In this document: in pieces, positions 16,018-53,478 of the stretch | Numbering within the stretch: position 1 is the stretch's first letter | How the letters are laid out: every line of letters begins with the position of its first letter | DNA from: Escherichia phage IME08 | Reading direction: 5' to 3' (one strand) | Length of the DNA: 64,000 nucleotides | Sequence record: NC_014260.1 | Made by a program: the position numbers and the translations under genes | The notes under the pieces: generated by a model | What the model saw: only the letters and a program-made list of their open reading frames with translations | Told to the model about the DNA's origin: nothing | Database searches by the model: none

Positions 16018-16023
16018 CAAAAA

Positions 16024-16041
16024 AGGAGAGCGTATGCTCTC
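16024..16041. terminator. bidirectional hairpin terminator (GGAGAGC-GTAT-GCTCTCC)
   Basis: 7-bp perfect stem between convergent gene 54 (+) and the minus-strand early cluster. Confidence 0.65.
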
Positions 16042-16052
16042 CTTTAGGGGGT

Positions 16053-24822: not shown

Positions 24823-24863
24823 TTTATTCTCCAGTTTGTTTTCGTATTATTTGGTACAGGTCT

Positions 24864-24892
24864 ATAATAACACAACCTGTACCAAAGTAAAC
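24864..24892 (-). promoter_or_regulatory. T4-type early promoter (GTTTAC-N17-TATTAT) with flanking inverted repeat
   Basis: Plus-strand ATAATA 24864-24869 and GTAAAC 24887-24892; GGTACAGG/CCTGTACC inverted repeat brackets the -10. Confidence 0.55.
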
Positions 24893-42795: not shown

Positions 42796-43743
42796 TTAAT
42801 AAAAATCAGCTACTGTAGCGGTTAGTTTAGACAAACCGGATTTAACGAAATAAGGATAAACTTTAGATTTCGAAGGTTTGTTATACGTATTATATCTTTC
42901 AGTAATTAAAGCAACAATATCATCCGGAATAAAGTCCATATCAATTAAGATTTGGTTTTCACAGAAACGTTCATATTGTTCTTCAGTAAGAAGTGTTTTA
43001 ATTATATCATGGTCATAATAATTAAGAGCAATTGCTTCAAGTTCCTTAGCACGAGTGCTAGGAGTACGTTCACCTTCAACCATTGTCAACCAGTAATCAC
43101 CACGAACTTTAATACTCGCGACGTTATCTTTACGGTCGCCTTTAACTACTTTAGTTACGCAATCAAGCAAGGCATCACCAGATTTCGTTTTGACGAATTT
43201 TTTCTGCATTGGAGACCATTGTTTCACCCCAGGGAATTTATGGAGTTGGGTAAAGTCACCATCAGAAGAACCAATCATAACCGGATGGCCTAAAGCCGTG
43301 AGGATTCGGGTTAAAACAGCAATATGGTCATCAGCTTCGATTGTATCGATGTTCATAACAATATAAGGCATGTTTTGTTCCAGTTCATCAACAATAATAT
43401 GCATTGCTGTGAATAAACCTTCCCAATCAAATGGTGATTCGTCACGTGCCTTAGCACGGTTTTTCTTATAATAAGAAGAATAACGACGACGCCAATAACC
43501 TGATTTAGAGTTATCAACACAAATAATCAGTTGGTTGTAACCTTGTTTTTTAAAGTCTTTAATGTTTTTCTTAATTGAATTCAACACAAGGTGTCGAAGC
43601 ATTGCTGTAGTTACTTTAGGAAATCCAGCATTTTCACCAAATTCTTGGAATGCGGCAGCCATAATGATTTGGCTAAAGTCTAACAACAAGAATCCATCTT
43701 TTTGACGTTCTTCTTCAGGAAGTAAAAAATCTAAATCGTTCAT
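42796..43743 (-). CDS. rnh: RNase H (5'-3' exonuclease / flap endonuclease)
   Basis: Start at ATG 43743 (MNDLDFLL…); colinear with recalled T4 RNase H (SSDGDFTQLHK, WSPMQKK, KGDRKDNVASIKVR). Confidence 0.9.
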   Translation of the reverse strand: MNDLDFLLPEEERQKDGFLLLDFSQIIMAAAFQEFGENAGFPKVTTAMLRHLVLNSIKKNIKDFKKQGYNQLIICVDNSKSGYWRRRYSSYYKKNRAKARDESPFDWEGLFTAMHIIVDELEQNMPYIVMNIDTIEADDHIAVLTRILTALGHPVMIGSSDGDFTQLHKFPGVKQWSPMQKKFVKTKSGDALLDCVTKVVKGDRKDNVASIKVRGDYWLTMVEGERTPSTRAKELEAIALNYYDHDIIKTLLTEEQYERFCENQILIDMDFIPDDIVALITERYNTYNKPSKSKVYPYFVKSGLSKLTATVADFY

Positions 43744-43810
43744 ATGAACCTCTGTCCAATTAGTGTAGAGGTTCATTATATCATGACCCTAGAAGAAGTA
43801 AACACTTTGC

Positions 43811-43818
43811 TATAAATA
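43811..43818 (+). promoter_or_regulatory. late promoter TATAAATA (gene 34)
   Basis: Exact TATAAATA 33 nt upstream of gene 34 ATG. Confidence 0.65.
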
Positions 43819-43850
43819 GTTCTATACCCTGAAAACGAAAAGGAAATAAA

Positions 43851-46800
43851 ATGGCTGATATTTTAAAACCTGCATTCCGTGCTACATCCGGACTCGATGC
43901 TGCGGGCGAGAAAGTTATCAATGTTGCCAAAGCCGATTACAATGTATTAGATGATGGCGTCAACGTTGAATTCTTTATAGATGAGAACACCATCCAGGCG
44001 TACGACGAGACGCGCGGATATAAGAAAGGGTTTGCAGTAATCCATGACCAACGTATCTGGGTTGCTCAACGTGATATCGATGCTCCTGCAGGAACCTTTG
44101 TACCTGGTTATTGGACTGCTACCCGTACTGACCCTAAATGGATTACCGTAGCGTCTCCTACACGCCAGCTGGCTTCCGGTGAATATATTGCAGTAGATTC
44201 TGCTGCTAGCTTTACTACATTTACCCTGCCTCCTAACCCTACTGATGGCGATACCGTTGTAATTAAAGATATTGGCGGACGTGTTGGTTATAACGAAATC
44301 AAGGTCCAATCTAGTTCTGCTCCTGGCGGCGGTAACCAGAAAATTGTTCGTTTTGGTAATCAGTTTACTGAGACCTTAATTACGAAGCCTTTTTCTTATA
44401 ACATGCTTATCTTTGCTAACCGTCTTTGGCATTTCTGGGAAGCAGGTAATGAAGAACGTGGTATCCGTGTAGAACCAAACATGGCCCAGTTCCAATCACA
44501 AGCAGGTGATAACGTTCTCCGTCGTTATACTTCAGGTGCAATAATTAAGTTTACTCTTCCTAAGTATGCAAACCAAGGTGATATGATTAAAACCGTTGAT
44601 ATCGATGGTTTAGGAAGTAAGTTCCACTTAATCGTTGAAACGTTTGATGCTTCATCTTCATTAGGTAAGCTTGGTCAGCATAGCATGGAATTCCGTACCT
44701 CAGGTGATGGATTCTTTGTTTATAACTCTACCGAAAAATTATGGTATGTTTGGGACGGCGACCGTCAAACTCGTTTACGTGTAATTCGTGACGATGTTGA
44801 GCTCTTGGCTAATGAAAGTGTTATTGTTTTTGGCCCTAATAATACAACACCACAGACGATTAATATCACATTACCCACAAGCGTAGCCCAGGGTGATGTC
44901 GTTAAGATTGCTCTGAACTATCTCCGTAAAGCTCAGACGGTAAATATTAAGGCAGCCGTAGGAGATAAAATAGCTTCTTCGGTTCAATTGCTCCAGTTCC
45001 CTAAACGTTCTGAATATCCGCCGGATACCGAATGGGTATTGAATGATGTATTGACTTTCAATGGTAACTTAAGTTATACTCCGGTTATTGAACTGAGTTA
45101 TATCGAAGACTCAACCACAGGTGGCAAATATTGGGTTGTTGCCCAGAACGTTCCTACTGTAGAACGTGTGGATTCTAAGGATGATTTAACTCGCGCGCGT
45201 CTCGGTGTTATTGCTCTGGCGTCACAGACCCAAGCAAACGTCGACCATGAAAATAATCCTGAAAAAGAACTGGCTATCACCCCACAGACTTTAGCTAATC
45301 GTGTAGCGACTGAATCACGACGTGGTATTGCTCGTATTGCTACAACTGCTCAGGTAAACCAGAATACTGGATTTGCATTCCAGGACGATTTGATTATTTC
45401 TCCTAAGAAATTAAACGAACGTACTGCTACCGAAACTCGTCGTGGTGTCGCTGAAATTGCTACGCAACAGGAAACTGATGCAGGTGTTGATGATACAACC
45501 ATTATCACTCCTAAGAAGCTACAGACGCGCCAGGGAACCGAAACCCTGTCAGGTATAGTAAAATACGTATCCACCACAGGAACCACTCCTGCGGACTCTA
45601 GAGCAACTGTAGGTACTAACGTTTATAATAAGAACACAACTACTTTAGTTATTTCTCCTAAAGCTTTGGACCAATATAAAGCTAACTATGAGAACCAAGG
45701 CGCTGTATATCTTGCTACGCAAGCCGAAGTTAACGCTGGTGCTACTAACCAAGGTTTTAGTAACTCAGCTGTTACACCTGAAACATTAGGTGCTCGTCGT
45801 GCTACTGATACTAATCACGGTTTAATTGAAATTGCTACGCAAGCAGAGACTGATGCTGGAACTGATTATACTCGTGCGGTAACGCCTAAGACGTTAAATG
45901 ACAGGAATGCTACTCAAACACTTACTGGTATTGCTCGTATTGGTACTCAAGTAGAATTTGATGCAGGTGTATTAGATAATGTTATTTCAACTCCGTTGAA
46001 AATTAAAACACGTTTTAATAATACTGCTAGAACTTCTGTCTCAGCAGCCAGTGGTTTGGTTGAATCAGGAACCTTATGGAACCATTATACACTAGATATC
46101 CGAGAAGCAAGTAATACTCAACGTGGTACGGCTCGTTTGGCTACCCAAACTGAAGTTAATACTGGTACCGATGACAAAACAATCATCACTCCGCTTAAGC
46201 TTCAAGCTAAAAAGGCTACCGAAAACGCTGAAGGTATTATCCAACTCGCTACTCAGGCCGAAGTTATTGATGGTACGGTAAGTAATAAAGCGTTTAGTCC
46301 TAAGCATTACAAATATATCGTTCAACAGGAAAAATCCTGGGAAGCTACTTCTGCTCGTAGAGGATATGTTAAATTAACCACAGGTACAGCCACTTGGGAA
46401 GGTGACGACACTAATGGTTCTGTTGCTAACCTGGCTAAATTTGAAGATTCCGGCTTTGCTATTTCCCCTCTTCAAATGAACACCGCTTTAACTCATTATC
46501 TTCCGATTAAAGGTAAGGCTTTTGACTCTGATAAATTGGACAACCTGGATAGCTCTCAGTTCGTCAGGAGAGATATTGACCAAATAGTTGAAGGAACATT
46601 AACCCTTCGTAAAAACATCAGAGTGGATGGCCAGTTGGCTACAGGCGGTACTGGTGAATTTGGTGGTTCTTTAGCTGCTAATAGCACATTTACCCTCCGT
46701 AATACAGGAACGGCTACGCGTATAATATTTGAAAAGGGTCCTCAAACAGGAACCAACCCTGCCCAATCTATGAGTATTCGCGTATGGGGTAACCAATTTG

Positions 46801-47758: not shown

Positions 47759-48883
47759 ATGGAAAGATTTATGGCTGAATTTGGACAAGATTACGTTCAA
47801 ATTCCTGTACTATCTGAAAATAATGCCGTTAGTTATAAACTTAGTATAGCAGGGAGCTGTACTAAGTCCACTAAAAAGGCTTATATTAAATTTCAAGATG
47901 AGGACTTAGGTCCTCAGAATTTCCAATCTGGCCTAAATTTGGTTGAAATAGACCCGACCAATAACACAATAGTGACTACAAAATCATACGCCTTTACTAA
48001 AGACCATGATGTTATTTCCCAAGCGTTTATAACTTATATTTCGTCTATACCCGCCGGTAGAATTGTTTGCTTTATTTCTTCCGGTAAATTAAACGCCTCA
48101 CAGGTATTAATTGATTGGTTTAGAGCTTCCGGTTCTACAGCGTTTCCAGATAAATGGCTCATTGATAAAGTGGATACTTCTTATTCAGCTTTTTATGTTT
48201 CAGGAAGGAATGCTATAGTAATGGAACACGTGCTTTATAACGACGGCGTTTTGGTAGAAGACGTTTCCACCCCATTAGAAGTCGTTTATGACAACTTTAA
48301 TGATGTAGGAGGAACTGGGTTCCCTGTTAGAGTCATTGAAGATGAAAACACTTACTATAGTGGAGCTACTCAAGAAATTAAAAGGTTTCCTACCGAATCC
48401 ACTATAACTCCTTGTGCCGGTTATAATATGGTTCCTGGAGATTTCTTTTATCTCAAATTTCAAATGACCTACGACCAGGCTTTAAAAGATTTAGGAACGA
48501 CCCAGATGTCCATACGATTTTTTAATGGCCAGGAAATGATTCAATCCACTGATATCAATATTCCTGTAGGAGCGGGCTCTCCACCAGCAGGTGCATGGAT
48601 GTCTTTTGAGCGCGTAATAGAAGTTCCGCCGAATGCCAATGGTTTTACATTATATTGTAGAAAAACTGTCTCAGGCGGAGTAGGAGGTGTTAGGAATGTT
48701 ATGTTTGGTGAAATAGCTAGACCTGAAGATACTCCTAAATCCGCTGAAATTGGTGTTAACGGTATTCGTATGAGCTACGGTACTGAAACCCGTTCAATGG
48801 GTAATGTTATTGCACAATTGAATGACAAATCATCTGGTAATGCAGGTAAAGTATTTGTTCAAGAATTTAAAGAAAAATATTAA
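47759..48883 (+). CDS. 35: long tail fibre hinge connector gp35
   Basis: 374 aa (T4 372 aa). Confidence 0.8.
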   Translation: MERFMAEFGQDYVQIPVLSENNAVSYKLSIAGSCTKSTKKAYIKFQDEDLGPQNFQSGLNLVEIDPTNNTIVTTKSYAFTKDHDVISQAFITYISSIPAGRIVCFISSGKLNASQVLIDWFRASGSTAFPDKWLIDKVDTSYSAFYVSGRNAIVMEHVLYNDGVLVEDVSTPLEVVYDNFNDVGGTGFPVRVIEDENTYYSGATQEIKRFPTESTITPCAGYNMVPGDFFYLKFQMTYDQALKDLGTTQMSIRFFNGQEMIQSTDINIPVGAGSPPAGAWMSFERVIEVPPNANGFTLYCRKTVSGGVGGVRNVMFGEIARPEDTPKSAEIGVNGIRMSYGTETRSMGNVIAQLNDKSSGNAGKVFVQEFKEKY

Positions 48884-52600: not shown

Positions 52601-53478
52601 ATATTACTGGTGGCGGATTAAACGTTACCGGTGGTAATACTAACCTTGGCAATATTACTTCGCGAGTGGTTTCATCCGCACGCGCGCCGGGCGGTTGGGC
52701 TGATAACTCAGATTCCACGAAATCTAAAATCACCTTTATGGCAGACCATGGTGATTTATCCAATTCGGGTAGTTATTATCCTATTGTCGGTGCGTGGAGT
52801 AACTATGGTTCAGCGGGTTATCGTCAAACCTTTGAATTTGGATGGGTCGGCACTGGTACCACAGCTGGTTGGCGCGATGGCATTATTCGTATACGTGGCG
52901 ACAACGCTACCGGCCAACAAGCAAGATGGCGCTTTACAATGGACGGTCTTTTAGATTGCCCTGGTAAAGTACAGATGCCACAAACAAGTGCCTTTGGTGT
53001 TAATACAACTAACTCACTCGGTGGAAGTAGTATAACATTTGGCGATAGTGATACCGGTATTAAGCAAAACGGTGATGGATTATTAGACATATATGCGAAC
53101 AATATACAAGTATTCCGTTTCCAAAATGGTGATTTGTACTCGTATAAAAATATAAATGCTCCTAACGTTTATATTCGTTCTGATATTCGTTTGAAATCAA
53201 ACTTCAGGCCTATTGAAAATGCTCTTGAAAAGGTTGAACAGCTCGACGGTTTAATCTATGATAAAGCTGAATATATCGGCGGTGAAGCGGTTCAAACCGA
53301 AGCGGGTGTTATTGCGCAGAGCCTGGAAGAAGTATTACCTGAAGCTATTTGTGAAGCTGAAGATATCAAAGGTAATAAAGTTCTAACAGTTTCGACTCAG
53401 GCACAAGTTGCTCTGTTAATTGAAGCGGTTAAAACCCTGTCGGCTAAAGTTAGAGAACTTGAAGCTAAATTAAATTAA
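49609..53478 (+). CDS. 37: long tail fibre distal subunit gp37 with C-terminal intramolecular-chaperone (S74-like) domain
   Basis: 1289 aa; C-terminus YIRSDIRLKSN…LSAKVRELEAKLN has the S-D-x3-K pattern and terminal helix of IMC autoprotease domains. Confidence 0.85.
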   Translation: MATLKSIQFKRSKTPGAKPTAAQLDEGELAINLRDRTIFTKSDQGQIIDLGFAKGGQVDGDVTINGRLTLEGELVQTSTAGMRTEGSITAPVFRASKGSFYSRASNDTANAHLWFENTNGSERAVLYAKPQLENEGVITMRVRQGTAAGAQNSEFHFISNDGGIFQARKLTALTSISTPTISVNLINHDSKAFGQYDSQSLVQYVYPGTGETNGVNYLRKVRAKSGGTMWHELCTAQLGQADELSWWTGNTPSSKQYGIRNDGRMAGRNSLALGTFTTDFPSSDYGNVGVMGDKYLVLGDTVTGLKYIKQGNFDLVGGGYSVASVTSDGFRGTSKTIFGRSNDQGLTWLLPGQNSSMVSIRTEIDGNNSGDGQTHLGYNSNGKLYHYFRGTGRVAISMAEGMIIEPGILNIKTGVNELNLRADGTVSTTQRLQINNGLVLNSNNNTSALAFTAPTAVDGTKTLNWDSGTRAGQNKNTVILKAWGNSFNAEKGNRETVWEVSDSQGYYFYAQRTNPAVAGGVGPVNFKFNGTVETGHIIGLGNISASGTGSFGGNVTMTNGLFVQGGASINGQVKMGGTADALRIWNAEYGMIFRRSETGSSASLHLIPTLQNAGENGGISDLRPLSINLANGTVIMGNKSAGYGPLFTVDNVSKFVQTDCRLRVNMDSDAIVVNASSQAASNFIQGRKADVTKWYLGIGDGGNVVRLHNYTYSHGIALNSDTVDITKPLKIGSDIRIGTDGNIIGSATLDNFKNLNSTLDHKVNMGGWAGGATTGWYKFATVEIPQSTGTASFKISGGSGFNFKSYGQASIAEIVLRTGNNNPKGLNATLWNRTSEAISQVASVNTSEDIYDIYVYLGGYSNSLVVEYTCSSNSKVTVVGMDSGVQPLVETLPEGHVVGKSVRMLNNIDGMFAAGESDIVTRGEYVTNNQKGMRIKSSGNDIGSNAALIRNDGGSFYILVTDKNTAENPNATDGLWNGLRPFSINMADGRVGMNHGLNITGGGLNVTGGNTNLGNITSRVVSSARAPGGWADNSDSTKSKITFMADHGDLSNSGSYYPIVGAWSNYGSAGYRQTFEFGWVGTGTTAGWRDGIIRIRGDNATGQQARWRFTMDGLLDCPGKVQMPQTSAFGVNTTNSLGGSSITFGDSDTGIKQNGDGLLDIYANNIQVFRFQNGDLYSYKNINAPNVYIRSDIRLKSNFRPIENALEKVEQLDGLIYDKAEYIGGEAVQTEAGVIAQSLEEVLPEAICEAEDIKGNKVLTVSTQAQVALLIEAVKTLSAKVRELEAKLN

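Follow-up and report, generated by a model that had tools for sequence, protein, structure and literature searches.

In bacteriophage T4 the genes e (lysozyme), soc, 49 and I-TevI carry a helix which buries the Shine-Dalgarno (SD) sequence and/or the AUG on long transcripts initiated upstream, and a promoter located at or inside the 5' strand of the helix gives shorter transcripts which can be translated (PMC3014915). A second T4 system of relevance is promoter Pe148.6, which heads the rnh-dsbA-33-59-32 unit. It has been documented both in vivo and in vitro by primer extension and shows activity at 1 min post infection (PMC6024815). The region studied here is the start of the T4-type RNase H gene (rnh) in a stretch of 64,000 nucleotides (nt) of Escherichia phage IME08 (NC_014260.1), referred to below as the window, which derives from a T4-like myovirus of the genus Dhakavirus. 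A preliminary description of this site, made from the sequence, had proposed a stem of 8 base pairs (bp) between two candidate rnh start codons which sequesters the initiation region and controls translation of RNase H or, alternatively, terminates upstream early transcripts. The inverted repeat was found to be longer than proposed, and the predicted large helix has exactly the geometry of the e/soc/49/I-TevI class. On balance this helix is probably an incidental, clade-specific by-product which is inert for the main rnh mRNA, and a smaller stem-loop located directly before the AUG is probably the real cis element.

The two plus-strand octamers of the preliminary description, GAACCTCT at 43746-43753 and AGAGGTTC at 43767-43774, were correctly identified, and the 8-bp stem is present, but the complementarity extends further. 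On the minus strand, ATGAACCTCT (43776-43767, the 5' arm) forms a perfect 10-bp stem with AGAGGTTCAT (43753-43744, the 3' arm), enclosing a loop of 13 nt (43766-43754) which contains the conserved leader sequence ACTAATTGGAC (43764-43754). The 3' arm includes the Shine-Dalgarno sequence GAGG(T) at 43752-43748, 5 nt ahead of the rnh ATG, while the 5' arm was variable among relatives. The order of elements on the minus strand is GTTTAC (43803-43798), 17 nt, TGaTATAAT (43783-43775), GAACCTCT ACACTAATTGGAC AGAGGTTCAT ATG. In a 66-nt RNA the helix gains four further pairs, through which UAUA in the -10 box is bound to UAUG at the start codon; this RNA folded at -14.8 kcal/mol (z = -2.5), and 4 of 200 shuffled sequences folded as well.

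Across the whole window, 38 perfect hairpins with a stem of at least 8 bp and a loop of 3-20 nt were counted, compared with 19.4 +/- 5.6 in Markov-1 random sequence; for stems of at least 10 bp the figures were 3 and 1.75 +/- 1.2, respectively. A repeat finder returned 278 inverted-repeat pairs. The repeat at rnh is real and among the three longest in the window, yet only marginally beyond chance. As a hairpin it is ordinary. What statistical weight it has is owed solely to where it sits, at the ribosome-binding site, and conservation gives it no backing. The only other perfect hairpins in the window with stems of at least 10 bp are located at 24850-24886 and 16022-16045, one formed by TTTGGTACAGGT / ACCTGTACCAAA (12 bp, 13-nt loop) and the other having a 10-bp stem and a 4-nt loop. 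Palindromes which overlap one another, built from CCTATAGG / AGGACCTATAGG units, were also observed as a cluster at 380-395 and 668-706. All seven matches to Rfam 15 were below the gathering threshold, the best being Vault RNA with 21.8 bits against 34.

The conservation of the large helix was assessed in 16 Dhakavirus genomes, the window being counted as one of them. The -35 and -10 elements, the leader core and the entire 3' arm were invariant in all 16, and the 3' arm was nearly unchanged out to T4 and Klebsiella phages. The 8-10 nt following the -10 box, by comparison, were present as five haplotypes. The haplotype of the window, ATGAACCTCT, is shared with phages C6, IME341, AnYang, PSD9, FB and WG01 and gives a helix of -13.8 kcal/mol, and ATGGACCTCT, found in QL01 and PSD2002, gives one of -12.8 kcal/mol with one G.U pair. 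The remaining haplotypes were ATGGACATCT in NC-G (-6.2 kcal/mol), ATGAACTCCT in VR5 (-6.9 kcal/mol) and ATAACCTTCT in JS98, IME281, CUA3, dhabil and dhaeg (-5.2 kcal/mol, as a register-shifted pairing of 6 bp). Three of the five, including that of the JS98 group, have lost 7-8.6 kcal/mol, which is half or more of the stability, and in none of the 16 genomes was a change in the 5' arm accompanied by a compensating change in the 3' arm. The segment forming the 5' arm varies like the adjoining promoter spacer, which suggests that it is unconstrained. Outside the genus, an SD-sequestering helix was not predicted in T4, T2, JS09/Mosigvirus, phage 212, IME523, P545, KPN6, COW86c or metagenomic relatives, and in these non-Dhakavirus phages the accessibility of the SD was equal in read-through and promoter-initiated RNA. 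Control of RNase H translation by the large helix, as first suggested, might be exerted on read-through RNA, but the helix is neither conserved nor compensated.

GTTTAC is the -35 sequence of T4 early promoters. It is located at 43803-43798 on the minus strand, 17 nt ahead of an extended -10 element, TGaTATAAT (43783-43775), whose last T (43775) is the second base of the upstream ATG at 43776-43774. In a promoter scan this combination scored 10 of 12 matches, with the TG extension before the second hexamer. Both GTTTAC and TATAAT were invariant in the 16 Dhakavirus genomes and were also present in T4 and JS09. This is a predicted sigma-70 early promoter of near-consensus sequence and the homolog of T4 Pe148.6. 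The two promoters share their position between gene 34 and rnh, the GTTTAC -35, the TATAAT -10, and an equal distance to the conserved leader and the ATG. They differ in the 8-9 nt after the -10 box, which are AGAAATCTC in T4 and GAACCTCTA in the window, and T4, unlike the window, has no SD-sequestering helix.

E. coli RNA polymerase usually initiates 6-10 nt past the -10 hexamer. In T4 the region transcribed from Pe148.6 extends upstream as far as 150,727 (PMC6024815); the T4 rnh ATG is at 150,704, which places this limit 23 nt upstream, at the seventh nucleotide after TATAAT, a canonical distance for a start. By homology and promoter geometry, transcription in the window is predicted to start at 43768 or at the pyrimidine-purine step 43767/43766, that is at the seventh to ninth nucleotide after the -10 box (43768-43766, minus strand). 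The -10 box ends at 43775, and the predicted +1 falls after 8-10 of the 10 bases of the arm. The 5' arm would consequently consist of the last -10 base, the discriminator and the start site, with at most its two last bases transcribed. With its predicted start inside or after the 5' arm, the main rnh mRNA would be unable to form the large helix.

In relatives bearing the leader motif, the -10 box (TATAAT, TACTAT, TAATAT or TAAGAT) ended 28-33 nt before the ATG. In phages 212 (L008/L208), P545 (L014/L210) and KPN6 (L018/L217) the early -35 GTTTAC was replaced by a MotA box, TGCTTTA or TGCTTCA, located 12-13 nt before the -10 and 30-60 nt upstream of the rnh ATG; the rnh promoter slot thus switches between the early and the middle class. 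A MotA dependence of T4 Pe148.6 has been reported and left unexplained (PMC6024815), and the MotA boxes in these relatives may have a bearing on it.

Minus-strand RNAs with varied 5' ends were folded, and the probabilities that the SD and the AUG are unpaired were compared. For 5' ends at 43900, 43830, 43790, 43776 and 43774 the SD was unpaired with a probability of 0.00, for 43772-43770 of 0.05-0.11, and for 43769-43765 of approximately 0.5. The read-through RNAs folded at -14.8 to -16.7 kcal/mol with the SD buried and the AUG unpaired at approximately 0.2. In these models, the large helix would be able to silence the rnh start site, and only on RNA begun upstream of the normal start window. 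The sequestration of the initiation region envisaged in the preliminary description is thereby borne out for any RNA containing both arms, but the main mRNA is predicted to lack the 5' arm, and that reading is probably right only for RNAs which are scarce.

The helix requires a 5' end upstream of the start window, and an RNA of this kind would have to traverse gene 34 antisense. Scans for promoters and terminators upstream of rnh revealed no source for such an RNA: a strict MotA-box promoter scan found none on the minus strand inside gene 34, and two strong, bidirectional, terminator-like hairpins are located further upstream on the minus strand at 48901-48882 and 53498-53483. For T4 gene 34, RNA sequencing counts taken at 5 min from a stranded library provided no evidence for antisense read-through. 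Read-through RNA across the rnh start is, on these grounds, judged unlikely. The first of the two hairpins (AAGGGACC..GGTCCCTT) follows an open reading frame (ORF) ending at 48883 and the second (AGGGCC..GGCCCT) an ORF ending at 53478; both are G+C-rich with T runs on both strands, and by gene order the two ORFs are probably genes 35 and 37. The same MotA-box scan identified one promoter near rnh, TGCTTTA-12-TATAAT at 42913-42889 on the minus strand, a strict middle promoter within the 3' end of rnh and upstream of a dsbA homolog, in a position matching that of T4 PmdsbA.

The smaller structure is a hairpin at 43758-43745 of the minus strand, composed of UGGAC (43758-43754), the loop AGAG (43753-43750) and GUUCA (43749-43745), and it was detected by folding and by covariation. 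It is part of a leader running from just past the start site to the ATG, with the consensus ACTAAYTGAAC-(A)(A)GAG-GTTCAW-ATG, which was conserved in Tequatrovirus, Mosigvirus, Dhakavirus, Kanagawavirus, Jiaodavirus and others, altogether at least eight genera of T4-like phages. The stem TGAAC/GTTCA (UGRAC-loop-GUUCA in the RNA) has 5-6 bp and stands directly before the AUG, and its loop of 3-5 nt holds the purines of the SD. Together with the ACUAAYUG leader it was seen in relatives L001, L008-L021, L087-L099 and L208-L243, and single-sequence folding returned it as the minimum free energy (MFE) structure of the +1-initiated RNA in all 23 motif-bearing relatives.

The pairing of the small hairpin is maintained across lineages by compensatory substitutions. 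Compensated double changes were found independently in L009 (TGTAC/GTACA), in L243 (TTCAAC/GTTGAA), in the P545 clade (TGAATA-GGT-TATTCA; L223 has this stem with a 4-nt loop) and in the L016 clade (TGAATg-AGAt-TATTCA). The clade of the window has TGGAC/GTTCA, in which the pair 43756-43747 is a G.U wobble, valid only on rnh-sense RNA. The MAFFT alignment placed hairpin segments out of structural register, and pairs were counted on the 13 in-register sequences, the register-shifted clades being described by hand and by single-sequence folding. Among the 13, 98.5% of the cells were paired and two of the five pairs had changed on both sides, including GC to CG and AU to UA doubles plus one G.U. 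Two of 500 shuffles reached the observed pairing, and control positions slid along the alignment were 15-57% paired. A covariance model built from these aligned sequences gave exactly one match per genome, which always ended at the rnh ATG (43741-43765 in the window); run with default filters at E <= 1, it missed the clades of P545 and L016. Because loops of 3-5 nt, shifts of register and rnh-sense-only G.U pairs are tolerated, the small stem would act as RNA.

The leader motif occurred once in the window and elsewhere in the window it was no commoner than expected by chance; the idea of an operator shared by several sites within the 64 kb was rejected for this lack of repetition. A pattern scan of IMG/VR with a conserved 16-mer mostly gave unrelated chance matches, and its new matches were not used. 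The small and the large helix are mutually exclusive, because both require the same 3' strand. A third alternative pairing for this strand is offered by GTTCATATGAAC (43738-43749, minus strand). These 12 nt are perfectly palindromic, with the start codon at the centre (GUUC-AUAU-GAAC), and the palindrome is specific to phages with AAC as the second codon.

The origin of the large helix and the role of the small one may be pictured as follows. The conserved initiation region for rnh translation, comprising the SD GAGG and the 3' strand of the small hairpin, would be the fixed and functional 3' segment; opposite it would be a freely drifting promoter-proximal segment which by chance became complementary to it in one lineage. 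E. coli RNA polymerase would start at about 43768-43766, giving a leader of approximately 25 nt without the 5' arm and without the 10-bp helix. On this leader the weak 5-bp UGGAC-AGAG-GUUCA hairpin would form immediately ahead of the AUG, its loop holding the SD purines, and it would most likely set, and mildly damp, the loading of ribosomes on the message for RNase H. Action of the large helix would be confined to read-through RNA antisense to gene 34, on which it would silence the rnh start. These effects of the two structures on translation are those suggested by the folding models.

Several observations weigh against this interpretation. The small hairpin is weak, the +1-initiated RNAs which contain it folding at only -2.4 to -5.7 kcal/mol, and it drops out of the MFE structure when more coding sequence is added and other folds compete. 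RNAalifold found no consensus structure in a 20-sequence alignment extending from the -10 box to +15, in which the stem is weak and four of the 20 sequences are shifted by one register. For the large helix, finding a given 10-mer perfectly complemented over 10 bp within approximately 30 nt is improbable at one pre-specified site, and for the whole window the expectation was only about 1.75 hairpins with a stem this long or longer. All five haplotypes retain a pyrimidine-rich, partly anti-SD 5' segment, which may reflect shared ancestry, these genomes being closely related. Finally, the predicted on/off switch is sharp: the +1 position in this phage is a predicted one, and were the start shifted upstream by only 2-3 nt, the mRNA would include CUCU or CCUCU and its SD would be sequestered again.

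The rival which best withstands these data is a true 'promoter inside the hairpin' switch belonging to the class of T4 e, soc, 49 and I-TevI, in which the long RNA folds the helix of 10-14 bp and leaves rnh untranslated, while promoter-initiated RNA, lacking the 5' arm, is translated. Such switches are documented in T4 (PMC3014915). The predicted burial of the SD and AUG in read-through RNA, with the SD at 0.00, and their release in promoter-initiated RNA fit this model, as does the retention of the perfect helix in 7 of the 16 Dhakavirus genomes, window included, and of a version with a G.U pair in two more. The promoter of T4 oriG presumably lies inside gene 34 and reads antisense to it, and would then supply read-through RNA. 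A MotA-dependent promoter of T4 oriG/ori(34) near this strand-switch region has been described (PMC3016281). Against the switch stand the uncompensated loss of stability in three of the five haplotypes and the absence of the helix from every other genus examined. The embedded promoter is early and not late, which leaves the arrangement without temporal logic, as read-through and promoter-initiated RNAs would coexist. Moreover, no minus-strand promoter was found upstream in gene 34, and the two terminator-like hairpins lie beyond. A working switch is accordingly regarded as unlikely, though still credible.

Two further propositions, that the helix is a working switch at least in the C6/IME341/WG01 lineage or that the small hairpin and the ACUAAUUG leader form an operator, are rather doubtful even when their chances are combined. 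If the former were true, RNase H would be translated only from the RNA of its own early promoter and silenced on antisense, origin-type transcripts of gene 34, and its supply would be tied to promoter choice beside a replication-origin region. If the latter were true, the hairpin would be bound by a factor acting in trans, either RegA or the RNase H protein, and would not be a passive tuning element.

It is quite improbable that the large helix forms on the main rnh mRNA through a start located further upstream and throttles translation of RNase H, such control being the main proposal of the preliminary description. An RNA begun at 43770-43776 would have its SD unpaired at only 0.00-0.11, and low expression is plausible for a nuclease such as RNase H, but initiation at or upstream of 43770 would place the first nucleotide only 1-5 nt past the -10 hexamer, as against the usual 6-10, the coordinate of the T4 homolog corresponds to the seventh nucleotide, and the helix is not conserved. 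An intrinsic terminator, acting on upstream early transcripts or on plus-strand transcripts approaching gene 34, is extremely unlikely; the 10-bp stem does have five G-C pairs, but its loop is of 13 nt, on neither strand is it followed by a U run (the letters next to it are AUGAACGAUUUAG on the minus strand and UAUAUCAUGACC on the plus strand), a terminator scan was negative at the site, and the non-conserved structure sits in a promoter and ribosome-binding site which need read-through. A protein-binding palindrome or a cruciform acting at the DNA level near the rnh/34 strand switch, for example in connection with an origin, has next to no likelihood, one arm being free to vary while the other is fixed, unlike a palindrome bound by a dimer, and the tolerance of the small stem for changes of loop and register and for rnh-sense G.U pairs pointing to RNA.

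The rnh gene occupies 43743-42796 of the minus strand and codes for a T4-type RNase H (5'-3' exonuclease) of 315 amino acids, with Pfam matches to RNaseH_C (1e-42) and 5_3_exonuc_N (4e-13), 57% identity to T4 RNase H and a match to PDB 1TFR at E = 2e-114. Both in-frame ATG codons of the preliminary description, at 43776 (43776-43774) and 43743 (43743-43741), exist, but the first, which reads TATA-ATG, is located inside the -10 box and the 5' arm and is missing in JS98-type Dhakaviruses and in T4. The alignment with T4 RNase H (PDB 1TFR) begins at residue 14 of the long ORF (981 nt), and rnh of relatives starts at the methionine equivalent to ATG 43743. Because the upstream codon is lost in the JS98 haplotype and T4 and because T4 RNase H aligns from residue 14, ATG 43743, already the preferred one, is the true start of rnh; ATG 43776 is no start codon but part of the promoter. 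In the GenBank records MW679410 (C6), MK234886 (AnYang) and PP597396 (COW86c), rnh is annotated from an upstream in-frame ATG, which falls in the -10 box in C6 and AnYang and in the leader (TAAATGAAC) in COW86c, whereas most sister records use the T4-equivalent start. The 981-nt annotation of C6 and AnYang takes in promoter sequence, and 43776 should not be annotated as a start.

The site is situated within the 107-bp intergenic region between the divergent genes rnh and 34. A 1-kb query (43300-44300) was 97.4% identical to Escherichia phage C6, and the 151 nt around the hairpin were 100% identical in C6 and IME341. Gene 34, for the proximal subunit of the long tail fibre, is on the plus strand with its ATG at 43851, and it is preceded by TATAAATA at 43811-43818, outside the hairpin, which is the consensus of T4 late promoters and was found in the same place in relatives. 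In L016-L022, L211 and L217, which have a short intergenic region, this late promoter TATAAATA on the other strand overlaps the -10 of rnh as TATTTATAAT, the two divergent promoters using one common A+T block.

Had the large helix worked, the few T4 switches with a 'promoter inside the hairpin' would have gained an early-gene example; the evidence says that the helix probably does not work. The gains are more modest: a corrected start codon, the assignment of a promoter, and a covarying hairpin with the SD in its loop in many rnh leaders of T4-like phages. The small hairpin provides a cheap target for studying how weak structure tunes the expression of a replication nuclease.

In comparison with e, soc, 49 and I-TevI, the window has GAGG in the 3' arm of the large helix and the AUG paired in its extended form, and sequence geometry puts the predicted promoter start inside or past the 5' strand. 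The structures of these T4 genes are conserved in related phages, whereas in the 16 Dhakavirus genomes and the other genera the helix of the window is not maintained, being limited to part of one genus with its changes uncompensated. The internal promoters of the T4 genes are late or middle/late, and the structures delay a late function, while that of rnh is of the sigma-70 early type and not of a later class. Finally, the T4 genes are covered by long upstream transcripts, and none is evident at rnh.

No paper on the structure of the rnh leader was found in the literature, and the small hairpin is not listed in the 2010 review of post-transcriptional control in T4 (PMC3014915). That review does provide relevant comparisons. 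RegB sites and RegA operators, like the rnh leader, are located on the ribosome-binding sites of mRNAs of early replication genes (PMC3014915). RegB requires GGAG or GGAU (PMC3014915), and the leader ACAGAGGUUCAUAUG contains neither, having GAGG. UAAUUG in the leader weakly resembles the core AAAAUUGUUAUG obtained for RegA by SELEX, but RegA sites, which overlap the AUG or lie just 5' of it, are A+U-rich and unstructured, and the rnh leader has structure and is not rich in A beside the AUG. In the T4 genes 38 and 25, mRNA structure influences the binding of ribosomes with no repressor involved; they resemble rnh in that their stem-loops are short and local, act in cis inside the ribosome-binding site and are conserved among T-even phages (PMC3014915). 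In these genes the hairpin intervenes between the AUG and a distant SD and draws both together, while in rnh the spacing of SD and AUG is already normal, and the SD is presented in the loop and the first pair of the stem.

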